From assembly GCF_054482595.1 (NCBI RefSeq), contig NZ_JBTHVH010000004.1: a stretch of DNA of 64,000 bases. One strand, given 5' to 3'. The notes below the pieces were generated by a model. The model had not been told where the DNA came from. It worked only from the letters and a program-made list of their open reading frames with translations, and did not search any database. This DNA is from a plasmid. Made by a program: the position numbers and the translations under genes. Positions 5,011 through 57,726 of the stretch are shown here, piece by piece. Positions within the stretch are counted from its first letter, which is position 1; each line of letters opens with the position of its first letter.

Positions 5011-5302
5011 TGGAGGTTCCTTCAGTTTTCTGATGAAGCGCGGAGGTGGCTCAACCTGCGAAAAGAAACGAGTTGCTATGGACTTGCACCGGTTGTGTTC
5101 CGGTCTATCTCTCATTTTAAGCGGCTTTTTTCTCAAATGCCACCGGCGATTTCCAGCCGAGTGTTGAATGTCTTCGGCGTGGATTATAAAAGCCATTTAC
5201 CCATATAATGCGCCTACTTATCAGCCTTTGGGACGTTGGGACGGTATTTTTCACTATATACCCCCAAGTTTTTAGACATGAAAAAAGGGTAATGACTCCA
5301 AC

Positions 5303-5806
5303 TTATTGATAGTGTTTTATGTTCAGATAATGCCCGATGACTTTGTCATGCAGCTCCACCGATTTTGAGAACGACAGCGACTTCCGTCCCAGCCGTGCCA
5401 GGTGCTGCCTCAGATTCAGGTTATGCCGCTCAATTCGCTGCGTATATCGCTTGCTGATTACGTGCAGCTTTCCCTTCAGGCGGGATTCATACAGCGGCCA
5501 GCCATCCGTCATCCATATCACCACGTCAAAGGGTGACAGCAGGCTCATAAGACGCCCCAGCGTCGCCATAGTGCGTTCACCGAATACGTGCGCAACAACC
5601 GTCTTCCGGAGCCTGTCATACGCGTAAAACAGCCAGCGCTGGCGCGATTTAGCCCCGACGTATCCCCACTGTTCGTCCATTTCCGCGCAGACGATGACGT
5701 CACTGCCCGGCTGTATGCGCGAGGTTACCGACTGCGGCCTGAGTTTTTTAAGTGACGTAAAATCGTGTTGAGGCCAACGCCCATAATGCGGGCTGTTGCC
5801 CGGCAT
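5303..5806 (-). CDS. insB: IS1 InsB' (expressed as an InsAB' frameshift fusion)
   Basis: 167-aa product ...[43 protein letters not shown]... Confidence 0.85.
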
Positions 5807-6000
5807 CCAACGCCATTCATGGCCATATCAATGATTTTCTGGTGCGTACCGGGTTGAGAAGCGGTGTAAGTGAACTGCAGTTGCCATGTTTTACGGCAGT
5901 GAGAGCAGAGATAGCGCTGATGTCCGGCGGTGCTTTTGCCGTTACGCACCACCCCGTCAGTAGCTGAACAGGAGGGACAGCTGATAGAAACAGAAGCCAC
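5725..6000 (-). CDS. insA: IS1 InsA
   Basis: 91-aa product [43 protein letters not shown]... Confidence 0.9.
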
Positions 6001-6055
6001 TGGAGCACCTCAAAAACACCATCATACACTAAATCAGTAAGTTGGCAGCATCACC

Positions 6056-6233: not shown

Positions 6234-6801
6234 GCTGAGAGATCCCCTCATAATTTCCCCAAAGCGTAACCATGTGTGAATAAATTTTGAGCTAGTAGGG
6301 TTGCAGCCACGAGTAAGTCTTCCCTTGTTATTGTGTAGCCAGAATGCCGCAAAACTTCCATGCCTAAGCGAACTGTTGAGAGTACGTTTCGATTTCTGAC
6401 TGTGTTAGCCTGGAAGTGCTTGTCCCAACCTTGTTTCTGAGCATGAACGCCCGCAAGCCAACATGTTAGTTGAAGCATCAGGGCGATTAGCAGCATGATA
6501 TCAAAACGCTCTGAGCTGCTCGTTCGGCTATGGCGTAGGCCTAGTCCGTAGGCAGGACTTTTCAAGTCTCGGAAGGTTTCTTCAATCTGCATTCGCTTCG
6601 AATAGATATTAACAAGTTGTTTGGGTGTTCGAATTTCAACAGGTAAGTTAGTTGCTAGAACCCATGGCTCCTTTGCCGACGCTGAGTAGATTTTAGGTGA
6701 CGGGTGGTGACAATGAGTCCGTGTCGAGCGCTGATTTTTTCGGCCTTTAGAGCGAGATTTATACAATAGAATTTGGCATGAGATTGGATTGCTGGCACTG
6801 T
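6234..6801 (-). mobile_element. IS10 remnant (outside end plus the 3' part of tnp), cut by IS26
   Basis: The IS10 end reads ctgagagatcccctcataatttccccaaagcgtaaccatgtgtgaataaattttgagctagtagggttgcagccacgag. The transposase C-terminus ends ...HSGYTITREDLLVAATLLAQNLFTHGYALGKL. Confidence 0.7.
6248..6766 (-). pseudogene. IS10 transposase, C-terminal 172-aa fragment
   Basis: The translation matches the IS10/Tn10 transposase C-terminus. Confidence 0.7.
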
Positions 6802-13033: not shown

Positions 13034-14594
<1,561 letters not shown>

Positions 14595-14702
14595 CTGTCA
14601 GACCAAGTTTACTCATATATACTTTAGATTGATTTAAAACTTCATTTTTAATTTAAAAGGATCTAGGTGAAGATCCTTTTTGATAATCTCATGACCAAAA
14701 TC

Positions 14703-14740
14703 CCTTAACGTGAGTTTTCGTTCCACTGAGCGTCAGACCC
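14703..14740. repeat. Tn2/Tn3 38-bp IRR
   Basis: cttaacgtgagttttcgttccactgagcgtcagacccc. Confidence 0.85.
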
Positions 14741-15355
14741 CGTATATCGCTTGCTGATTACGTGCAGCTTTCCCTTCAGGCGGGATTCATACAGCGGCCA
14801 GCCATCCGTCATCCATATCACCACGTCAAAGGGTGACAGCAGGCTCAGAAGACGCTCCAGTGTGGCCAGAGTGCGTTCACCGAAAACGTGCGCCACAACT
14901 GTCCTCCGTATCCTGTCATACGCGTAAAACAGCCAGCGCTGACGTGATTTAGCACCGACGTAGCCCCACTGTTCGTCCATTTCAGCGCAGACAATCACAT
15001 CACTGCCCGGTTGTATGCGCGAGGTTACCGACTGCGGCCTGAGTTTTTTAAGTGACGTAAAACCGTGTTGAGGCCAACGCCCATAATGCGGGCAGTTGCC
15101 CGGCATCCAACGCCATTCATGGCCATATCAATGATTTTCTGGTGCGTACCGGGTTGAGAAGCGGTGTAAGTGAACTGCAGTTGCCATGTTTTACGGCAGT
15201 GAGAGCAGAGATAGCGCTGGTGTCCGGCAGTGCTTTTGCCGTTACGCACCACCCCGTCAGTAGCTGAACAGGAGGGACAGCTGATAGAAACAGAAGCCAC
15301 TGGAGCACCTCAAAAACACCATCATACACTAAATCAGTAAGTTGGCAGCATCACC
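14741..15355 (-). mobile_element. IS1 remnant (lacks ~150 bp of the insB end), abutting the Tn2 IRR
   Basis: It starts inside IS1 at gtatatcgcttgctgattacgtgcagc and ends at the IS1 IR ...gttggcagcatcacc. Confidence 0.85.
15025..15300 (-). CDS. insA: IS1 InsA (second copy)
   Basis: 91-aa product, near-identical to the first copy. Confidence 0.85.
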
Positions 15356-15401
15356 CGATGCAGCTTTCGTCAATCATGACAGTTATGAGTTTTCCGGTTA
15401 C

Positions 15402-15725
15402 TTATCCATTTTTGCCAGCGTGTTCCGCAACATCTGTTTTACTGTTTACACAGCACTCTTCACGTAAGAATTCGATGATAGCTTCCAGTATTTCGTATTG
15501 AGAGACACACATGAGCGTTCGACTCTCCCGGTTTTGTGTGACGAGCCCTACTGATACCAGGGCTGAAATATGATGACTTAACGTTGATGAGGGAATGCCA
15601 AGCTGCTTTTGCAATTCACCTACAGGCAAACCTTGTTCTCCAGCTTTTACAAGATGTTTGAATATGAACAAACGGGTCGGGTGACCCAGCTCTTTTAGTG
15701 CTTTAGCTACTTCTTCCAGTTGCAT
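15402..15725 (-). CDS. arsR: ArsR/SmtB-family metalloregulator
   Basis: 107-aa product with HTH LFIFKHLVKAGEQGLPVGELQKQLGIPSSTLSHHISALVSVGLV and a C-terminal CC pair. Confidence 0.7.
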   Translation of the reverse strand: MQLEEVAKALKELGHPTRLFIFKHLVKAGEQGLPVGELQKQLGIPSSTLSHHISALVSVGLVTQNRESRTLMCVSQYEILEAIIEFLREECCVNSKTDVAEHAGKNG

Positions 15726-15830
15726 GTGACAACCCTCTGTCTAATGATATTTCGATAATACCAGAAATATCTTGACCAGAATTATATTTCGATTATTCTA
15801 GAAACGTAGATTTTGTCAAGAGGGTTTAGT

Positions 15831-16964
15831 ATGAATAGTTGGATTTCTATGCTGCAAGATGCCGCAGAGATGTTTTTGTTTTTGGCCGTCGAGCTATCTT
15901 TGCTGTTTATTGTCATCAGTGCCGGTGTGAGCCTGATAAGGCAAAAGGTCCCGGACCATAAAATCCAGCAATTGATAGGGGCGAAAAAAGGAAAAGGCTA
16001 CCTGCTGGCCTCGTTGTTGGGAGCCGTTACCCCTTTCTGTAGTTGCTCAACAATTCCAATGCTACGAGGGTTGTTGTCGGCGAAAGCAGGGTTTGGTCCG
16101 ACACTCACTTTTTTGTTTGTTTCACCGTTGCTTAATCCCATTATCGTGGGGTTAATGTGGGTTACCTTTGGCTGGAAAGTAACTTTGTTGTACGCGATCA
16201 TCGCTGCCGGTGTCTCAGTCCTTGCCAGTATCGTATTGGATTTACTAGGATTTGAACGTCATATTGTTGATCACAAAAACTCAGCATCAAGTGGTTGCAC
16301 CACGAAATGCGATGATTCCGAAGCTTCGGTAAAAACGTCGGCGGGTTCCAGTTGTTGCAGCACTAGCTCGACTCAATTGCCTTTAAAAACGAGTTGCTGT
16401 ACTTCATCAGCGAACCCCATAATTAACTTAAGGACGGTAAAGAACGAGCAGAACGTATCAGCGTGTTGTTCATCAATATCATCTGAACAACCAGCTGTTA
16501 GCTGTTGCAGCAGCGAGAATCTGGGCAATGTGAATCTCACAACGAATACCACCTCTGGCCCAATAAAGTTAGCTATGAAAGATGCCTTACAGCAGTTTAA
16601 GGATGTTCTGCCTTATCTTTTGTTAAGTGTATTAATAGGTTCATTTATTTATGGCTTTATCCCTTCAGAGTGGATTGCAGCTCATGCCGGAGCAGATAAT
16701 CCCTTAGCCATACCGCTGAGTGCAGTTGTTGGTATTCCGTTGTATATCCGCGCAGAGGCAGTGATACCACTTGCATCAGTGCTGATGACTAAAGGAATGG
16801 GCCTGGGGGCATTAATGGCCTTGATAATCGGTAGTGCTGGAGCGAGTTTGACAGAAGTAATACTGCTTAAATCAATGTTCAGAATGCCTATGATAGTCGC
16901 TTTTCTGACAGTAATCCTGGGTATGGCCATACTTATGGGGTATCTGACCCAATTGCTTTTTTAA
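15831..16964 (+). CDS. Putative ArsP-like permease (DUF318-type) with a Cys/Ser-rich central loop
   Basis: Product contains the TPFCSCSTIP motif typical of organoarsenical efflux permease ArsP. It has multiple TM segments and a CxxS/CC-rich hydrophilic loop. It is divergent from arsR. Confidence 0.55.
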   Translation: MNSWISMLQDAAEMFLFLAVELSLLFIVISAGVSLIRQKVPDHKIQQLIGAKKGKGYLLASLLGAVTPFCSCSTIPMLRGLLSAKAGFGPTLTFLFVSPLLNPIIVGLMWVTFGWKVTLLYAIIAAGVSVLASIVLDLLGFERHIVDHKNSASSGCTTKCDDSEASVKTSAGSSCCSTSSTQLPLKTSCCTSSANPIINLRTVKNEQNVSACCSSISSEQPAVSCCSSENLGNVNLTTNTTSGPIKLAMKDALQQFKDVLPYLLLSVLIGSFIYGFIPSEWIAAHAGADNPLAIPLSAVVGIPLYIRAEAVIPLASVLMTKGMGLGALMALIIGSAGASLTEVILLKSMFRMPMIVAFLTVILGMAILMGYLTQLLF

Positions 16965-16988
16965 TAATAATAGTAAGGGTCTTCTGGT

Positions 16989-17808
16989 GGCACTGTTGCA
17001 AATAGTCGGTGGTGATAAACTTATCATCCCCTTTTGCTGATGGAGCTGCACATGAACCCATTCAAAGGCCGGCATTTTCAGCGTGACATCATTCTGTGGG
17101 CCGTACGCTGGTACTGCAAATACGGCATCAGTTACCGTGAGCTGCAGGAGATGCTGGCTGAACGCGGAGTGAATGTCGATCACTCCACGATTTACCGCTG
17201 GGTTCAGCGTTATGCGCCTGAAATGGAAAAACGGCTGCGCTGGTACTGGCGTAACCCTTCCGATCTTTGCCCGTGGCACATGGATGAAACCTACGTGAAG
17301 GTCAATGGCCGCTGGGCGTATCTGTACCGGGCCGTCGACAGCCGGGGCCGCACTGTCGATTTTTATCTCTCCTCCCGTCGTAACAGCAAAGCTGCATACC
17401 GGTTTCTGGGTAAAATCCTCAACAACGTGAAGAAGTGGCAGATCCCGCGATTCATCAACACGGATAAAGCGCCCGCCTATGGTCGCGCGCTTGCTCTGCT
17501 CAAACGCGAAGGCCGGTGCCCGTCTGACGTTGAACACCGACAGATTAAGTACCGGAACAACGTGATTGAATGCGATCATGGCAAACTGAAACGGATAATC
17601 GGCGCCACGCTGGGATTTAAATCCATGAAGACGGCTTACGCCACCATCAAAGGTATTGAGGTGATGCGTGCACTACGCAAAGGCCAGGCCTCAGCATTTT
17701 ATTATGGTGATCCCCTGGGCGAAATGCGCCTGGTAAGCAGAGTTTTTGAAATGTAAGGCCTTTGAATAAGACAAAAGGCTGCCTCATCGCTAACTTTGCA
17801 ACAGTGCC
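16989..17808 (+). mobile_element. IS26 copy 4, flanked by an 8-bp direct repeat cttctggt
   Basis: IRs at 16989 and 17795-17808. cttctggt sits at 16981-16988 and again at 17809-17816. Confidence 0.95.
17034..17756 (+). CDS. tnp26: IS26 transposase
   Basis: Identical product. Confidence 0.95.
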   Translation: MLMELHMNPFKGRHFQRDIILWAVRWYCKYGISYRELQEMLAERGVNVDHSTIYRWVQRYAPEMEKRLRWYWRNPSDLCPWHMDETYVKVNGRWAYLYRAVDSRGRTVDFYLSSRRNSKAAYRFLGKILNNVKKWQIPRFINTDKAPAYGRALALLKREGRCPSDVEHRQIKYRNNVIECDHGKLKRIIGATLGFKSMKTAYATIKGIEVMRALRKGQASAFYYGDPLGEMRLVSRVFEM

Positions 17809-17919
17809 CTTCTGGTTTCATGTTGAACAAAGAAGACCCTTTAGCTTCTGTAATCCATTTAATCAGTCTGAATGAAATAGATTATAAATTCTGCTCTGCA
17901 TACCTGCTTAACCAAAGTC

Positions 17920-18272
17920 TCATGATTCTGATTGTCGGTACAGTGCCTGAATGTGGCATATCTGGGAGGTGCTGTACCCTGTTGCATCTGCCGTTTCTTT
18001 CTTGACCTGCCGGTAGTAAAGTACCTTTTGATGCCGTTCCTGAGCGACCTGTTTTCCCTGATATTTACCCAGCGTATGTGCGAGTTCAACTCCCTGCTTT
18101 TGGCGCTGGCGGTCAATTTGCTCGACCAGCAAAATATCATTGCGGTGACTGTCCATCAGTAAGCGACCCAGTTCCGGTCGGTCAAGTTTTGTACCGCTGA
18201 TATTCTCCCGGTAGTAACTGGCTATTTTATGCCCCCGCTCCTAAACAAACTGCTCCAGCATCTCTTTTGCCC
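17920..18272 (-). pseudogene. tnpR: Serine recombinase (resolvase-like) fragment lacking the N-terminal catalytic region
   Basis: Translation ...YYRENISGTKLDRPELGRLLMDSHRNDILLVEQIDR... plus an HTH-like tail. A stop precedes it, and it is divergent from the downstream tnpA. Confidence 0.4.
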
Positions 18273-18491
18273 GATCGGTGAACTGATCTTCCGTCTATGC
18301 CCTTAAATAAGTGCTGATGAACATTTTTTCACCGCATTACCGCATTTAGGTTATTGCATTTAATCTATCGCATATAGGCTATGTCGTTCATTGTGTGCCG
18401 TCACGTTTAGATTATGGTGTCAGGGTATACCCTTATGCGATAACCATTTTTGTTAAAAATAACGCATCGAATAATTTATGAGGAAAACTAT

Positions 18492-21479
18492 ATGGCAAGG
18501 AGGCAGATTCTTTCTCTGTCGGAAAGAGAATCATTACTGGCATTACCGGACGATGAGTTAACGCTGACCCGAATGGCCTATTTCAGTGAGCATGATCTGG
18601 CGCTTATCAGTGCTCACCGTAAACCCGCCAGCCGTTTTGGTTTTGCCGTCCTTCTTTGCTATCTGAAAAATGTCGGCTTTGCCCCGGATAAAAAAATCTC
18701 TCCCTCTGATGCGCTGCTGAAGCATATCGCCAGCAGGCTAAAGCTTACCGGGGATCTCTGGCCTGCTTACCTTTCCGGCCGGGATACGACCCTGCGTGAG
18801 CATTTAACCGAACTGTACCGCTATCTTGGCGTAAAGGCGTTCACCGGCAAAATACAGCAGGACTGTATTACGCACCTGTTATCGATGGCGACGCGCACCG
18901 ATAAAGGCATTCTCCTAGCCGAAGAGTTACTTGTCTATCTCCGGCAGAACAACGTGATAATCCCCGCGATTGATGTCGTGGAGCGTACCTGTGCTGAAGT
19001 CATGGCAGGCGGCGATAAAATCGTATTTCAGACCCTGAATGCCCCGTTAACTCCGGCTCACAGGGATGCCCTGGATCATTTACTTGAGTCATCAGATAAT
19101 CAGCCTTCCAGGCTGACATGGCTTCTGCAACCGCCGGGTAAAATCAATGGTAAGAACGTGCTGCAACATCTTGATCGGCTCAGCAGCATTGAATCGCTGG
19201 CATTACCTGAAGGTATAGATCGTACCATTCACCAGAACCGGTTGCTGAAACTGGCGCGGGAAGGCCGAAAGATGAGTAGCCGGGATTTGACCCGATTTTC
19301 AGCTGCCCGGCGTCATGCGATCCTGGTGTGCGTGCTGGAAGAAGCCAGAGCCACACTGACAGACGAAGTGATTGAGCTGCATGAGCGAATGCTGAATAGT
19401 CTTTTCAGCAAAGCCAAACGAACACAGGCTGAGCGCCTTCAGCAGACCGGAAAGCTGATCCAGTCAAAACTGAGGCAGTACATCGATGTCGGTCAGGCGC
19501 TGTCTGATGCCCGTGATTCCGGTGGCGATCCCTGGCTCGCAATAGAAAACATACTCCCATGGGCTGAATTTGTCGCCAGTCTGGATGAAACACGCCATCT
19601 CGCCAGAAAAAATAATTTTGACCCGCTGCATATTATTACCGAGAAATACAGCACATTACGGAAATATGCCCCACGCATGTTGTCCGCTTTACAGTTAGTC
19701 GCAACCCCGGCAGCGCAACCTCTGGCTGATGCACTGGTTGTGATCAAGGATATGTACCGGAAGCAGTCACGTAAAGTTCCGGCGGCAGCGCCGCTTGAGT
19801 TTGTCCCTGAAAGCTGGCGCAAGGTGGTGATTACACCTGTGGGTATTGACCGGCAGTACTATGAGTTTTGTGCACTCAGCGAGCTTAAGGGGGCGTTGCG
19901 CTCCGGGGATATCTGGGTTAAAGGCTCGCGCCGCTACAAAAATTTTGATGATTACCTCATACCCGAGAAGGACTTTGACAAACTCACACCGGCACTGCCA
20001 CTGCCCGTATCTGCTGATTATCATGAGTACATTACCAGCCGTATGACCCTGCTTCAGTCCAGACTTGAAGAGGTCAATGCCATGGCTGCCCTTGGTGAAC
20101 TGCCCGATGTGGAAATATCCGACAGGGGCGTAAAAGTCTCTCCGCTGGATAACTGCGTTCCGGCGCAGGTTTCACCGCTGGCAGAGCTGGTTTACAGCAT
20201 GCTACCGCGACCTAAAATCACGGAAATTCTCGATGAGGTAAACAGCTGGACGACGTTTACCCGACATTTTTCGCATATAAAAAATGACATTACCCGTCCC
20301 GATACCCGCTTGCTCCTCACCACCATTCTTGCGGATGGCATCAATCTTGGCCTGACCAAAATGGCAGAAGCCTGCCCCGGGAGCACCAAATCATCACTCG
20401 AAGATATTCAGGCATGGTACATCCGTGACGAAACCTATTCAGCCGCTCTTGCAGAGCTGGTAAATGCGCAGGGGAAAAGACCGTTGGCGGCATTTTGGGG
20501 AGACGGAACAACGTCATCATCAGATGGACAAAATTTCAGAACCGGCAGCTCAGGCCGCTACGCAGGGCAGGTTAACCCGAAATATGGGCAAGAGCCTGGA
20601 CGTCAGTTTTATACCCATATTTCGGATCAATACAGCCCGTTTTACACCTGCATAATCAGTCGGGTCAGGGATTCAACCCATGTTCTCGATGGCTTGCTGT
20701 ACCACGAAAGCGACCTGGAAATCAGGGAACATTACACCGATACCGCTGGTTTCACCGATCATGTCTTTGCCCTGATGCATCTGTTGGGATTTGCGTTCTG
20801 TCCGCGAATCAGGGATCTCCACGACAAAAAACTGTTTATCAAAGGGAAAGCAGAGAAATACCCGGCGCTTCAGTCACTGATATCAACGACCAGCCTGAAT
20901 CTGAAAGAGATCGAAATCCACTGGCGTGAAGTGCTGCGTCTGGCAACCTCGATAAAGCAGGGAACCGTGACGGCATCCCTGATGCTGAAAAAGCTTGCCA
21001 GCTATCCCAAGCAAAACGGACTTGCCAAAGCACTGAGAGAAATTGGCCGCATTGAGCGAACCCTGTTTATGCTCGACTGGTTCCGCGACCCGGCTCTGCG
21101 TCGGCGGGTACAGGCGGGGCTGAATAAAGGCGAAGCCCGTAACGCGCTGGCGCGTGCGGTATTTATGCACCGACTGGGAGAAATCAGGGACAGAAAACCG
21201 GAAAATCAGAGCTATCGCGCCAGTGGACTGACGCTGCTGACGGCTGCCATATCCCTGTGGAATACCGTCTATATGGAAAGAGCGGTCGATGCCCTGAAGC
21301 GTAAAGGGGTGAAGATCAACGAGCAACTGCTGTCGCATTTGTCGCCGTTGGGCTGGGAACACATCAATCTGACAGGTGATTATATCTGGAAAAGCAACCG
21401 GATACCGGCTTCTGGTAAGTTTCGTCGGCTAAGACCAGCTAAAGTCGAAAGGTCAAAAAACAGCCTTAACGTACAATAA
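18492..21479 (+). CDS. tnpA: Tn3-family transposase (995 aa) of an unrecognised member
   Basis: The N-terminus [19 protein letters not shown]... resembles the Tn21 subgroup, with full DDE region motifs. The gene ends inside a 38-bp IR. Confidence 0.85.
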   Translation: MARRQILSLSERESLLALPDDELTLTRMAYFSEHDLALISAHRKPASRFGFAVLLCYLKNVGFAPDKKISPSDALLKHIASRLKLTGDLWPAYLSGRDTTLREHLTELYRYLGVKAFTGKIQQDCITHLLSMATRTDKGILLAEELLVYLRQNNVIIPAIDVVERTCAEVMAGGDKIVFQTLNAPLTPAHRDALDHLLESSDNQPSRLTWLLQPPGKINGKNVLQHLDRLSSIESLALPEGIDRTIHQNRLLKLAREGRKMSSRDLTRFSAARRHAILVCVLEEARATLTDEVIELHERMLNSLFSKAKRTQAERLQQTGKLIQSKLRQYIDVGQALSDARDSGGDPWLAIENILPWAEFVASLDETRHLARKNNFDPLHIITEKYSTLRKYAPRMLSALQLVATPAAQPLADALVVIKDMYRKQSRKVPAAAPLEFVPESWRKVVITPVGIDRQYYEFCALSELKGALRSGDIWVKGSRRYKNFDDYLIPEKDFDKLTPALPLPVSADYHEYITSRMTLLQSRLEEVNAMAALGELPDVEISDRGVKVSPLDNCVPAQVSPLAELVYSMLPRPKITEILDEVNSWTTFTRHFSHIKNDITRPDTRLLLTTILADGINLGLTKMAEACPGSTKSSLEDIQAWYIRDETYSAALAELVNAQGKRPLAAFWGDGTTSSSDGQNFRTGSSGRYAGQVNPKYGQEPGRQFYTHISDQYSPFYTCIISRVRDSTHVLDGLLYHESDLEIREHYTDTAGFTDHVFALMHLLGFAFCPRIRDLHDKKLFIKGKAEKYPALQSLISTTSLNLKEIEIHWREVLRLATSIKQGTVTASLMLKKLASYPKQNGLAKALREIGRIERTLFMLDWFRDPALRRRVQAGLNKGEARNALARAVFMHRLGEIRDRKPENQSYRASGLTLLTAAISLWNTVYMERAVDALKRKGVKINEQLLSHLSPLGWEHINLTGDYIWKSNRIPASGKFRRLRPAKVERSKNSLNVQ

Positions 21480-21502
21480 TTTTCGATATCCAAACTGACC
21501 CC
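21465..21502. repeat. 38-bp Tn3-family terminal IR (outer end 21502): GGGGTCAGTTTGGATATCGAAAATTATTGTACGTTAAG
   Basis: The IR starts GGGG and ends ACGTTAAG as in the Tn3/Tn1000 group. It overlaps the tnpA stop. Confidence 0.65.
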
Positions 21503-21832
21503 GAATACAAGGACAATGCCGGTACCGCCTGATTACTTCTGGCGTCGTCTACAATGTTACTCCAGGCATATGCTGCGTCGTCCGGGGTTTGTTTTGGATC
21601 TATGTCCAATGTCGGCCAGACGTGGCCCTGATGATTCTTGCCCTTTGTACAGGAAGTGATTAAGTGTACTGAGCGTTCAGAGAACATTATCTTCCTTACA
21701 TACCCATAGAACAGCTTTCTAAGAACGGTGGGCTCGGCTGAAAATTACAAATCAGCCCCTTTCACGGCATCATTTTGATTCTTCGCGTCTGCCCCAGTAA
21801 GATGACCGGTTTTCTGCATGACAGTGTTATTC

Positions 21833-22126
21833 CTAACAAACGCAACACAAAACCACGCCAGCCAGAGCAAATTTTTTCATTTGCTGCGTAAAGAGCCTAT
21901 TGTTTTCTCTTTTAAGCTTCGCCCACTCGTTACAGAGGGTAACATCATCAAGCGCTGTTATATGCTTCGCCTCACCTTCGACGATAACGGTATGGATACC
22001 GTATGCTGTAAATCTCATACTATTTTCCAGAACCCAGTTGCGGTATTCGTCGAGTCCACCTTCGGAACCGGTAGCTCTGCGCCACATTTCAATTTGCTTG
22101 TGTGATGGGTCAAGTGTACTTGTCAT
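21833..22126 (-). CDS. Hypothetical protein (97 aa), Cys-rich C-terminus
   Basis: ORF only; ends ...ALAGVVLCCVC. Confidence 0.3.
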   Translation of the reverse strand: MTSTLDPSHKQIEMWRRATGSEGGLDEYRNWVLENSMRFTAYGIHTVIVEGEAKHITALDDVTLCNEWAKLKRENNRLFTQQMKKFALAGVVLCCVC

Positions 22127-36682: not shown

Positions 36683-37584
36683 TCAGCGATCGGCTCGTTG
36701 CCCTGCGCCGCTCCAAAGCCCGCGACGCAGCGCCGGCAGGCAGAGCAAGTAGAGGGCAGCGCCTGCAATCCATGCCCACCCGTTCCACGTTGTTATAGAA
36801 GCCGCATAGATCGCCGTGAAGAGGAGGGGTCCGACGATCGAGGTCAGGCTGGTGAGCGCCGCCAGTGAGCCTTGCAGCTGCCCCTGACGTTCCTCATCCA
36901 CCTGCCTGGACAACATTGCTTGCAGCGCCGGCATTCCGATGCCACCCGAAGCAAGCAGGACCATGATCGGGAACGCCATCCATCCCCGTGTCGCGAAGGC
37001 AAGCAGGATGTAGCCTGTGCCGTCGGCAATCATTCCGAGCATGAGTGCCCGCCTTTCGCCGAGCCGGGCGGCTACAGGGCCGGTGATCATTGCCTGGGCG
37101 AGTGAATGCAGAATGCCAAATGCGGCAAGCGAAATGCCGATCGTGGTCGCGTCCCAGTGAAAGCGATCCTCGCCGAAAATGACCCAAAGCGCGGCCGGCA
37201 CCTGTCCGACAAGTTGCATGATGAAGAAGACCGCCATCAGGGCGGCGACGACGGTCATGCCCCGGGCCCACCGGAACGAAGCGAGCGGGTTGAGAGCCTC
37301 CCGGCGTAACGGCCGGCGTTCGCCTTTGTGCGACTCCGGCAAAAGGAAACAGCCCGTCAGGAAATTGAGGCCGTTCAAGGCTGCCGCGGCGAAGAACGGA
37401 GCGTGGGGGGAGAAACCGCCCATCAGCCCACCGAGCACAGGTCCCGCGACCATCCCGAACCCGAAACAGGCGCTCATGAAGCCGAAGTGCCGCGCGCGCT
37501 CATCGCCATCAGTGATATCGGCAATATAAGCGCCGGCTACCGCCCCAGTCGCCCCGGTGATGCCGGCCACGATCCGCCCGATAT
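36683..37584 (-). pseudogene. tetA(A): tetA(A), 5'-truncated (lacks ~100 N-terminal codons)
   Basis: Identical to the 3' 0.9 kb of the intact copy at 51931-53130. It ends ...RRGLWSGAGQRADR and is cut at ...LYIGRIVAG by the Tn2 IRR. Confidence 0.85.
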
Positions 37585-37622
37585 GGGGTCTGACGCTCAG
37601 TGGAACGAAAACTCACGTTAAG
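37585..37622. repeat. Tn2/Tn3 38-bp IRR (second copy)
   Basis: ggggtctgacgctcagtggaacgaaaactcacgttaag. Confidence 0.85.
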
Positions 37623-37731
37623 GGATTTTGGTCATGAGATTATCAAAAAGGATCTTCACCTAGATCCTTTTAAATTAAAAATGAAGTTTTAAATCAATCT
37701 AAAGTATATATGAGTAAACTTGGTCTGACAG

Positions 37732-38970
<1,239 letters not shown>

Positions 38971-47276: not shown

Positions 47277-47594
47277 TTGCTTTGATGTGTGATTTTAAAC
47301 GCTCAAATTTATAAAACGAATAATATTGTCAACCTTGCAATAATAGACATAGGGACAACCATGTATAAATTTTTACCCTCAGGCGTCTTCACAATAGAGC
47401 CATATAGCAGTGGGTCACTTAGTGGGCTTAATTTTTCCATTAAAGATAATATTAATATTGCTCAGTATAAAACATCATATGGTAGCCCATCTTGGCAAGT
47501 AAACATAAGGCTGCCATTTATAAGGCACTGTTGCAAAAATGTGGAGGTGATAGGGGTACTACGCCGGAACCCCAGATTTTTCCGTCCGTTCAAA

Positions 47595-56907: not shown

Positions 56908-57726
56908 GGCACTGTTGCAAATAACCACGAATGGTAAGCTGAAGACTGTTTTAGCTAAAGGTGCAGCATATGAATCCTTTCCATGGTCGGCATTTTCAGG
57001 GCGAAATCATTCTTTGGGCTGTGCGCTGGTATTGTAAATATGGCATTAGCTATCGTGAACTGCAGGAAATGCTGGCCGAACGGGGTGTGAATGTTGATCA
57101 CACGACTATTTACCGTTGGGTTCAACGTTATGCTCCTGAAATAGAAAAACGTTTACGCTGGTATTGGCGTAATCCTACAGATCTGAGCTCGTGGCATATT
57201 GATGAAACCTATGTAAAAGTGAATGGACGATGGTCTTATCTGTATCGTGCAGTCGATCAACGTGGCGATACCATTGATTTTTATCTTTCTTCTAGACGTA
57301 ATACCAAATCAGCATATTGTTTTCTTGGAAAAATTTTAAATAATGTGAAGAAGTGGCAAATTCCACAAGTGATCAACACGGATAAAGCACCCACATATGG
57401 ACGTGCTTTATCACGGTTAAAACGGGAAGGTAAATGTCCACCAGACCTTGAGCACAGGCAGATTAAGTATAAAAATAACGTGATTGAATGTGATCATGGC
57501 AAGCTAAAGCGGATCATCAGGGCCACATTAGGATTCAAATCTATGAAGACGGCTTATGCCACAATTAAAGGTATTGAAGTCATGCGTGCACTACGTAAAG
57601 GACAAGCATCGTCATTTTATTATGGTCAGCCTCAGGGTGAAGTGTGTCTAATCAACAGGGTTTTCGGTCTCTAAGTACTTTTTAAAGGGAACATCATCGA
57701 CTCAAATCTCTATTTGCAACAGTGCC
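56908..57726 (+). mobile_element. IS6-family element distinct from IS26 (819 bp; IS1006/IS1008-like)
   Basis: IRs ggcactgttgcaaa at 56908 and tttgcaacagtgcc at 57713-57726. The 237-aa transposase is ~80% identical to Tnp26. Confidence 0.8.
56961..57674 (+). CDS. IS6-family transposase
   Basis: [93 protein letters not shown]... Confidence 0.9.
   Translation: MQHMNPFHGRHFQGEIILWAVRWYCKYGISYRELQEMLAERGVNVDHTTIYRWVQRYAPEIEKRLRWYWRNPTDLSSWHIDETYVKVNGRWSYLYRAVDQRGDTIDFYLSSRRNTKSAYCFLGKILNNVKKWQIPQVINTDKAPTYGRALSRLKREGKCPPDLEHRQIKYKNNVIECDHGKLKRIIRATLGFKSMKTAYATIKGIEVMRALRKGQASSFYYGQPQGEVCLINRVFGL

Follow-up and report, generated by a model that had tools for sequence, protein, structure and literature searches.

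A pair of genes for arsenic resistance, arsR and arsP, is separated by a copy of IS26 from the transposase gene of a Tn3-family element in a plasmid window of 64,000 nucleotides (the whole stretch of DNA that was analysed, from contig NZ_JBTHVH010000004.1). The question that this locus raises is whether the IS26 is a simple insertion into a transposon that already carried arsR and arsP as passengers, or whether the segments on its two sides have been brought together from separate places. In our reading, to which we give a probability of about 0.9, the locus forms the right-hand side of an ars transposon of the Tn3 family, as yet unnamed, that resides in an IncHI2 backbone and into which a single IS26 has been inserted. 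The resistance genes occupy the left of this region:

15402-15725, minus strand: arsR, encoding an ArsR/SmtB-family repressor of 107 aa (Pfam HTH_20/HTH_5, NCBIfam NF033788)
15726-15830, no strand assigned: divergent arsR/arsP intergenic region, with the repeated motif ATATTTCGAT(A/T)AT
15831-16964, plus strand: arsP, encoding an ArsP-family permease of 377 aa from ATG (Pfam ArsP_1)

The arsR product matches PF12840 and PF01022, scores 63.2 bits with NF033788 (cut-off 55) and is entered in RefSeq as WP_001175593.1 in identical plasmid DNA. An ELCVCDL-type site was looked for in its translation and is absent; the cysteines of the protein are a C-terminal Cys-Cys pair (...EECCVN...) and one Cys at LMCVS. 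The intergenic region, to judge from its sequence, is a putative promoter/operator. The ArsP permease, which would have 383 aa if translation began at an upstream TTG at 15813, matches ArsP_1 (PF03773) with 180 bits (cut-off 32.3) over residues 16-380, has the sequence TPFCSCS in positions 67-73 and does not reach the NCBIfam cut-offs of two named transporter equivalogs that it weakly matched. A cysteine pair of the TPFCSCS type is reportedly an ArsP motif, as described by Chen et al. in 2015. Its gene adjoins arsR here and stands in an arsR-arsH-sigL-arsD-arsA context in the plasmids pQJDsal1 and pESI. The name arsP is also the one used for the gene in PMC6449608, and the ArsP of Campylobacter jejuni is an efflux permease for trivalent organoarsenicals (reviewed in PMC6205960). 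The two proteins have in common the Pfam ArsP_1 family and the linkage to arsR and arsH, and differ in that the window protein, whose function is predicted, possesses a Cys-rich loop of ~85 aa with four CC pairs. Homologues of this ArsP, both chromosomal and from MAGs, range from 46 to 97% identity, and none of the homologue loci found has the inverted repeats of the transposon considered here.

To the right of the IS26 lies the transposition module of the Tn3-family element:

17920-18324, minus strand: psi-tnpR, an inactivated serine resolvase gene (tblastn against the intact 213-aa TnpR of a K. aerogenes relative)
18325-18491, no strand assigned: tnpR-tnpA intergenic region, presumed res, 93% identical to the relative with intact tnpR (BLAST)
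18492-21479, plus strand: tnpA, Tn3-family transposase gene, 995 aa, intact (Pfam DDE_Tnp_Tn3 and DUF4158)
21465-21502, minus strand: IRR, GGGGTCAGTTTGGATATCGAAAATTATTGTACGTTAAG, a terminal inverted repeat of 38 bp that occurs once in the window

TnpA scores 493 bits with PF01526 and 1128 bits with NCBIfam NF033527 (cut-off 500), and differs from the TnpA of plasmid pVM01 at one residue, L101 vs R101. The resolvase gene had been described in the initial annotation as truncated. It has not been cut by the IS26, which lies 104 bp from its end, and is rather a pseudogene in which the codons for Ser10 and Gln28 are in-frame stops, residues 73-145 (73 codons) have been deleted in frame and four further codons are missing from the HTH (tblastn and three-frame translation). 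The same lesions occur in pVM01 and pQJDsal1 (100% identity over 5319 bp), and the gene is dead. A 93-aa ORF at 17859-18140 was considered as tnpR and rejected (wrong frame, no Pfam match). The left inverted repeat, IRL, is absent from the window. A scan that tolerated up to three mismatches, together with a BLAST search that used the 460 bp of pVM01 next to IRL, matched nothing there but the IRR and, at 5287-6055, a complete IS1 that is unrelated; an inverted-repeat search across 14500-22000 gave nothing relevant. With one inverted repeat left and no resolvase, the element in the window has lost the ability to transpose as a unit. A search for a name of this transposon in the literature found none, and the RefSeq label of its protein is just "Tn3 family transposase".

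Complete copies of the same transposon exist on other plasmids. The unit in pVM01 (6394 bp) has the order IRL-269 bp-IS1-arsR-arsP-psi-tnpR-tnpA-IRR, with an IRL that is identical to IRR at 38/38 positions and the 5-bp duplication TACAA on both sides; the version in pQJDsal1 is 20,769 bp long, also carries arsH-sigL-arsD-arsA, and has identical inverted repeats with TTATT on both sides. Both inverted repeats, mutually identical, occur not only in these two plasmids but also in an E. albertii plasmid and in pCP53-38k, and six different sequences flank IRL and seven flank IRR across plasmids. The arsR and arsP genes of the window match those of pQJDsal1 at 100% identity, with the same junction to psi-tnpR-tnpA, and what the window lacks by comparison is arsH, sigL, arsD and arsA (a 3,818-bp deletion associated with IS1). 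The ars cluster of the pQJDsal1-type comparison is 96.9% identical to ars2 of the IncI1 plasmid R64 (PMC6449608). The nearest Tn3-family relative found is an element of ~37 kb with ars/sulfur cargo in the K. aerogenes plasmid pWP5-W18-CRE-01_1, which shares the divergent tnpR-res-tnpA layout, the 5-bp duplications and the placement of cargo beyond tnpR. Its 38-bp GGGG...TAAG inverted repeats are identical at 36/38 positions, its tnpA is ~93% identical over the first 958 nt of the gene, the part present in that locus, and its IRL-proximal 277 bp are 99% identical; the window element is unlike it in having a dead tnpR, a cargo of arsR-arsP plus IS1, a lost IRL and an IS26 that splits it.

It had been suggested that the metal(loid) efflux pair is the passenger of the Tn3-family transposon, and this is borne out by the two complete copies in which identical inverted repeats and 5-bp duplications enclose the pair; such sequence comparison shows arsR and arsP to be passengers. 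One alternative that we weighed, and consider very improbable, is that arsR and arsP are no cargo of the transposon and adjoin tnpA by accident, having been brought there through IS1 or another kind of recombination. It draws on copies of arsR-arsP with 95-97% identity that occur without a Tn3-family module in pESI-type and pHNTS62 plasmids, where they adjoin proQ/finO-like backbone genes (with arsH-sigL-arsD-arsA in pESI) and where homology stops just past the arsP stop codon. In addition, identity to the related transposon is only ~69% in the 3' part of psi-tnpR as compared to 93% in the 5' part and res, a split that suggests past recombination near the arsP/psi-tnpR junction. Whatever its origin, however, the pair sits inside the inverted repeats and has moved with them, as the two complete copies attest, and the arsP/psi-tnpR junction is invariant (100%) in IncF, IncX1, IncHI1, IncHI2 and P1-like backbones.

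With arsR and arsP as passengers, the left side of the element has to be accounted for, and here two further features come into play:

14704-14741, plus strand: 38-bp terminal inverted repeat of a Tn2/Tn3-type bla transposon, matching the Tn2 inverted repeat of pQJDsal1 at 38/38 positions
14742-15355, minus strand: truncated IS1, nt 155-768 (Pfam DDE_Tnp_IS1), its right end being the deletion end-point beside arsR

The IS1 remnant, which aligns to the complete 768-bp IS1 of pVM01 (L001 7300-8067), had been thought to truncate the transposon at 15356. It is instead internal to the transposon, since complete copies (those of pVM01, pQJDsal1 and a P1-like plasmid among them) have their IRL a further 269 bp out from the IS1. 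In relatives without IS1 the homologous sequence continues leftward of 15356, and between pVM01 and pQJDsal1 the IRL-proximal 307 bp and the left junction of IS1 are identical, with right junctions that are 3,818 bp apart. The IS1 thus appears to mark an internal adjacent deletion of 3,818 bp that took arsH-sigL-arsD-arsA. A 9-bp duplication was looked for at the IS1 and none was found. Between pVM01 and pQJDsal1 the IS1 itself differs at 26 clustered positions, so that a model in which the same IS1 made the adjacent deletion must assume a conversion patch or an exchange of IS1. In line with these findings, the uninterrupted order IR-arsR-arsP-tnpR-tnpA-IR that the initial annotation had proposed to look for turned up in natural plasmids, but only with an IS1 inside it. 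In the window, the Tn2-type inverted repeat cuts into the IS1 at 14741/14742 and is preceded by a blaTEM remnant (13857-14594; Pfam beta-lactamase) that is in turn cut by another IS26 at 13853/13854.

On the right, the element ends in the IncHI2 backbone:

21503-21507, plus strand: GAATA, in the IncHI2 backbone beside IRR, the expected single copy of the 5-bp duplication

An empty IncHI2 site is found in pD90-1 (...gattacct/GAATAcaagg). The corresponding junction of IncHI2 backbone, GAATA and IRL (...GATTACCTGAATA/IRL) was searched for in PLSDB and no record has it; 12-bp extensions of such a junction in P1-like plasmids were spurious. With no PLSDB plasmid that keeps the IRL junction at this IncHI2 site, the GAATA duplication, and with it a clean transposition into IncHI2, is putative. 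The GAATACAA flank that pVM01 and the window have in common shows homology over the 8 bp only, and is best taken as due to chance or to a preference for AT-rich targets.

We now turn to the IS26 that parts arsP from the transposition module, and to the sequences around it:

16975-16985, plus strand: left arm of a hairpin, AAGGGTCTTCT, in the fold of the reconstructed site
16981-16988, plus strand: left copy of the target-site duplication, CTTCTGGT, abutting the IS26 end
16989-17808, plus strand: IS26, 820 bp long and oriented like arsP, bounded by 14-bp terminal inverted repeats
17052-17756, plus strand: tnp26, 234 aa, the only transposase gene of this IS26
17809-17816, plus strand: right copy of the target-site duplication, CTTCTGGT, abutting the IS26 end
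17831-17841, plus strand: right arm of the hairpin, AGAAGACCCTT, now parted from the left arm by IS26

The 14-bp termini are exact (16989-17002, plus; 17795-17808, minus), forming perfect inverted repeats GGCACTGTTGCAAA, and the DNA is 100% identical to the copy in pNDM-M121, whose CDS is annotated as IS26-family transposase WP_001067855.1. In size, inverted repeats, the 234-aa Tnp26 and the 8-bp duplication the element is like IS26 of the IS6/IS26 family in every respect. It lies 24 bp from the arsP stop codon and interrupts no gene. The window holds seven IS26 copies, each of 820 bp and 100% identical to one another, and the copy at 16989 is the only one of the seven with matching flanks. 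Neither the six others nor an 819-bp IS26 relative at 56908 has them, as had been noted earlier, and a comparison of flanks between the IS26 copies, direct and as reverse complements with up to one mismatch, gave no match. The copy at 16989 is therefore the sole one in the window that retains its duplication, the others having gone through later IS26-IS26 events. Copies 3 and 4 were also considered as a compound transposon with a duplication of its own, and this was rejected on the basis of their outer flanks (ATAATTAC vs CTTCTGGT), which differ.

Could the 8-bp match be a coincidence, if the IS26 had come in through homologous recombination, or through the targeted conservative route between IS26 copies already present, and had joined segments that were never contiguous? 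For a given pair of flanks the chance expectation is 1/65,536. The octamer CTTCTGGT is somewhat over-represented in the window (9 occurrences vs 1.6 expected), and the unrelated flanks of the six other identical copies show that such junctions are the usual outcome here, but even at the empirical octamer frequency of ~7e-5 per position the match is not due to chance. The decisive test of a simple insertion is the empty site. When 16989-17816 was deleted in silico, as the initial annotation had suggested, arsR and arsP were joined directly to the tnpR remnant and tnpA, and the resulting 1400-bp junction, used as a BLAST query, was found uninterrupted in nature, both in at least 225 PLSDB plasmids (query coverage of at least 80%) and in 126 complete E. 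coli genomes out of 5426, with CTTCTGGT occurring once in each. Among the matches listed, all 40 of 40 plasmid records were 100% identical over the full 1400 bp. The rejoined flanks, moreover, complete a hairpin. Coincidence, which we hold to be very improbable, is refuted by these contiguous flanks, and the IS26 was inserted at a CTTCTGGT target between arsP and psi-tnpR with duplication of 8 bp.

The same insertion and its two junctions recur in ~35 plasmids that were sequenced independently, including pNDM-M121, which on inspection is IncHI2A, and 19 of the complete E. coli genomes share them. The insertion of IS26 inside the ars transposon is thus real and ordinary, having already been present in dozens of sequenced plasmids. 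That an IS26 repeat was misplaced at 16989 during assembly is scarcely credible. Seven identical 820-bp copies in 64 kb do invite misjoins of a well-known kind, but an IS26 put in the wrong place by the assembler would neither yield a precise 8-bp duplication nor recur with both junctions in so many independent plasmids and genomes.

The hairpin of the reconstructed site has an 11-bp stem (-20.7 kcal/mol, z -3.5), and two diverged homologues have hairpins of other sequence at the same position after arsP. A consensus terminator scan did not call it, because it is without a T-run, and we describe it as a conserved hairpin rather than a proven terminator. The IS26 splits this hairpin. It is conceivable, if quite unlikely, that arsenical-inducible transcription from the ArsR-controlled arsP promoter reads through into the IS26, such that exposure to arsenicals would bring about more Tnp26 and more rearrangement. 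This reading draws on geometry, i.e., the split hairpin, the common orientation and the 24-bp spacing; if it is true, arsenicals such as roxarsone in feed could raise IS26-driven rearrangement in this plasmid lineage.

Taken together, these features can be arranged into a proposed history. An ars transposon with arsA-arsD-sigL-arsH-arsR-arsP, whose tnpR would already have been dead, may have gained an IS1 near IRL, and an adjacent deletion by this IS1 would then have taken 3.8 kb (arsA through arsH) and given rise to the 6.4-kb form. This form would have transposed into the IncHI2 backbone at GAATA. Later, a Tn2 probably entered the IS1, and IS26-mediated events would have removed everything leftward, including IRL; the insertion of IS26 into the spacer between arsP and psi-tnpR may precede or follow these losses. 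IS26 moves via cointegrates, by either a copy-in (replicative) or a targeted conservative route (PMC7986276, PMC4471558, PMC7885326). A lone IS26 with an 8-bp duplication would thus have arisen from a cointegrate formed at the target, followed by recombination between two direct IS26 copies which, judging from the known biology of IS26, would remove the donor or a translocatable unit. The arsR-arsP pair is now flanked by two directly oriented IS26 copies, at 13034 and 16989, and IS26 could thereby mobilise the pair as a translocatable unit, possibly of 3,955 bp and consisting of one IS26, the blaTEM remnant, the IS1 remnant, arsR and arsP.

What we have found on IS26, the Tn3-family element and arsenic resistance is known biology; its value lies chiefly in annotation and plasmid history, and the current understanding of these three subjects is unchanged. 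The locus offers a clean example of a "primary" IS26 insertion, which is rare, in the midst of many secondary junctions of IS26, and the transposon, which went on moving with a dead resolvase gene, is of mild interest for Tn3-family biology. Plasmids of E. coli and Salmonella commonly carry an arsR-arsP remnant, which is the IS1-trimmed stump of a Tn3-family arsenic transposon, and the IS26 at CTTCTGGT after arsP is a lineage marker for a group of large multi-resistance plasmids of livestock and humans.

The arsR-arsP pair is cargo of a Tn3-family transposon, as the initial annotation had proposed, and in complete copies of this element on the plasmids pVM01 and pQJDsal1 it lies between 38-bp terminal inverted repeats (IRL and IRR) bordered by 5-bp duplications. 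The features of the window that bear on this history are the following:

15402-15725, minus strand: arsR, a 107-aa ArsR/SmtB regulator
15831-16964, plus strand: arsP, a 377-aa permease (Pfam ArsP_1, 180 bits)
16975-16985 and 17831-17841: arms (AAGGGTCTTCT and AGAAGACCCTT) of a hairpin with an 11-bp stem, split by IS26
16989-17808: IS26, 820 bp, bounded by the 14-bp terminus GGCACTGTTGCAAA at 16989 (plus strand) and 17795-17808 (minus strand)
17920-18324, minus strand: psi-tnpR, a resolvase pseudogene
18492-21479, plus strand: tnpA, an intact 995-aa Tn3-family transposase, its reading frame ending within IRR
21465-21502, minus strand: IRR, the 38-bp inverted repeat GGGGTCAGTTTGGATATCGAAAATTATTGTACGTTAAG

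Over 5933 bp of transposon DNA, a single base separates the window from the IncF plasmid pVM01 (T at 18793 against G in pVM01; TnpA residue 101, Arg to Leu). Farther left pVM01 carries a complete 768-bp IS1, then 269 bp, then an IRL that matches IRR at 38/38 positions, the whole forming a unit of 6394 bp with TACAA on both flanks. The IncX1 plasmid pQJDsal1 holds a longer version, of 20,769 bp, with these inverted repeats and with TTATT on both flanks. Six distinct flanks were seen beside IRL and seven beside IRR, and the host backbones include IncF, IncX1, IncHI1, IncHI2 and a P1-like phage-plasmid; from this variety it follows that the element has transposed repeatedly with its arsR/arsP cargo. 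The phage-plasmid copy, in p20170403CC-1 (L029, 7512-11578), is an IS1-arsR-arsP transposon near a c1 repressor and a cre-like integrase, and many plasmids of ~90 kb with the same IRL-region match and query span probably carry the transposon too, p20170403CC-1 being the one inspected. A rival view has the pair entering by recombination, since pHNTS62 and pESI contain an arsR-arsP copy of 95-97% identity with no Tn3-family module (in pESI together with arsH-sigL-arsD-arsA), and homology to this copy stops just past the arsP stop codon. Such copies, however, concern the route by which the cargo was acquired and not its present status as cargo. Chromosomal arsR-arsP homologues of ~78-84% nucleotide identity, some near IS1, are found in E. 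coli, Shigella and E. whittamii (L013, L005, L008) and may be related to the source from which the plasmid cargo came.

The proposal that IS1 truncates the left side of the transposon at 15356 does not hold, for in pVM01 IRL lies 269 bp beyond IS1, which is internal. The first 307 bp and the left IS1 junction are exactly common to pVM01 and pQJDsal1, while their right IS1 junctions are 3,818 bp apart, so that IS1 is an internal deletion end-point rather than a transposon end. In pQJDsal1 arsA-arsD-sigL-arsH lie between IS1 and arsR; IS1 lacks a 9-bp duplication, and in IS1-free relatives homologous sequence carries on to the left of 15356. The simplest reading of these alignments is that an IS1 adjacent deletion took out arsA through arsH, a reading that must assume a conversion patch, given 26 clustered differences between the two IS1 copies. 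At 14741/14742 the IS1 of the window is interrupted by a Tn2-type bla transposon, whose 38-bp inverted repeat makes the cut. The fragment concerned (13854-14741, a blaTEM remnant plus inverted repeat) interrupts IS1 at its nt 154/155 and is cut in turn by IS26 at 13853/13854; a separate Tn2-type bla-end fragment, also cut by an IS26, occupies 37582-38150. In pQJDsal1 a Tn2 entered the same IS1 independently, at nt 659/660 and in the opposite orientation. IRL and the 269-bp segment proximal to it are absent from the window.

The IS26 copy at 16989-17808 disrupts no gene, lying 24 bp past the arsP stop codon within the hairpin, and the octamer duplication claimed for it is present: CTTCTGGT abuts both ends, at 16981-16988 and 17809-17816. 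The window contains this octamer somewhat more often than expected (9 occurrences against 1.6, the seven further ones being in unrelated contexts); even so, a match at a given position has a probability of <1e-4. Six further copies, 100% identical, begin at 6794, 9717, 13034, 38151, 44786 and 62863. None has matching flanks, as had been stated, and no two copies in the window share a flank, in either orientation, at ≤1 mismatch. The initial annotation would have counted 56908-57726 as IS26, but this 819-bp element is a different IS6-family member, only 75.6% identical (194 mismatches, 5 gaps) with the same 14-bp termini. An isolated terminal 14-mer at 47524-47537, beside which no IS26 body was detected, may be a truncated IS26 end or a chance remnant. 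Copy-in transposition of IS26 yields a cointegrate that contains the element twice, in direct orientation, together with an 8-bp duplication, and recombination between the two copies leaves a single IS26 that keeps the duplication (PMC7986276, PMC4471558, PMC7885326). The copy at 16989-17808 would have arisen by these two steps, and the other copies presumably lost their duplications when later IS26-IS26 reactions, deletions or inversions took place.

The uninterrupted junction, whose absence from nature would have counted against a simple insertion, is common. A 1400-bp query from which 16989-17816 had been removed was matched at ≥80% query coverage in 225 plasmid records; the 40 records listed, from Escherichia, Salmonella and Shigella hosts, each show 100% identity along the entire query. 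Of 5426 complete E. coli genomes, 126 contain a 212-bp version, nearly always on a plasmid. The identical insertion, with both junctions, occurs in ~35 PLSDB plasmids, mostly of 200-370 kb and from pigs, poultry and humans, and its left junction in 19 of the 5426 E. coli genomes; it is thus a marker passed down within a plasmid lineage, and no peculiarity of this sample. The single insertion-carrying plasmid inspected, pNDM-M121, is IncHI2A and has the layout of the window (bla-IS1 remnant-arsR-arsP-IS26-tnpA-backbone).

For the hairpin of the reconstructed site the folding energy is -20.7 kcal/mol (z -3.5). At the corresponding place after arsP, two diverged homologues carry hairpins that differ in sequence, with stems AAGGGATTTT/AAAATCCCTT and AGGATC/GATCCT (L018, 8510-8550; L004, 2085-2110). 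That position and not sequence is kept across the three suggests compensatory change, and the positional conservation speaks for a functional RNA or a terminator; the hairpin lacks a T-run and was not called by a consensus terminator scan. It is very unlikely, a speculation from geometry, that splitting the hairpin allows arsenical-inducible read-through from arsP into tnp26. ArsP itself has TPFCSCS at residues 67-73 and a loop of ~85 aa (residues about 150-235; window 16270-16560), rich in Cys, Ser and Thr with four CC pairs, which may bind metal(loid)s and is 32 aa shorter in the pHNTS62/pESI variant.

A tnpR remnant does lie beside tnpA, as annotated, but it was not truncated by IS26, its end being 104 bp away. 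Compared with the TnpR of a related transposon in K. aerogenes (213 aa, intact), psi-tnpR has its own lesions: stops at the Ser10 and Gln28 codons, an in-frame deletion of residues 73-145 and the loss of four HTH codons. A 93-aa ORF between IS26 and tnpA (17859-18140) is spurious. The lesions are identical in pVM01 and pQJDsal1 (100% over 5319 bp), so at least one of the transpositions occurred with a dead resolvase, and the resolution of cointegrates would have fallen to host recombination or to a resolvase in trans. The K. aerogenes plasmid relative (~37 kb) resembles the element in its inverted repeats (36/38), its IRL-proximal 277 bp (99% identical) and tnpA (~93% over the 958 nt of the gene present in the locus), and differs in its intact tnpR and in a large cargo that comprises arsenic, sulfur and fluoride genes. 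In pWP5-W18-CRE-01_1 (L020, 355-2026) its IRL is interrupted after ~31 bp by an IS110-family element, resembling the IR-targeting of IS4321/IS5075. A hybrid derivative occupies a different IncHI2 site in pEC195-253k (L003, 7659-8414), where arsR-arsP-psi-tnpR plus the initial 265 nt of tnpA, at 99.6% identity, run straight into the final 756 bp of a tnpA/IR of 94% identity; this amounts to an internal 2-kb tnpA deletion or a recombination with a sister transposon.

IRR adjoins IncHI2 backbone, for which pD90-1 supplies the empty site (...GATTACCT followed directly by GAATACAAGG). The corresponding IRL junction is absent from all PLSDB records, and GAATA (21503-21507) is the expected duplication only. 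The 8 bp GAATACAA to the right of IRR (21503-21510) also stand to the left of IRL in pVM01 (L001, 6985-6992), with no homology beyond them, probably through chance or an AT-rich target preference.

The exact configuration is already many times in public databases, and all its components are known kinds of elements behaving as expected. With one inverted repeat and no resolvase, the Tn3-family element of the window is stranded. Between the directly oriented IS26 copies that start at 13034 and 16989 lie 3135 bp (blaTEM remnant, IS1 remnant, arsR and arsP); the outer flanks of the two copies are mismatched, so the segment did not arrive as a unit, and 13034-17808 is now a potential 3,955-bp IS26 translocatable unit carrying arsR-arsP.
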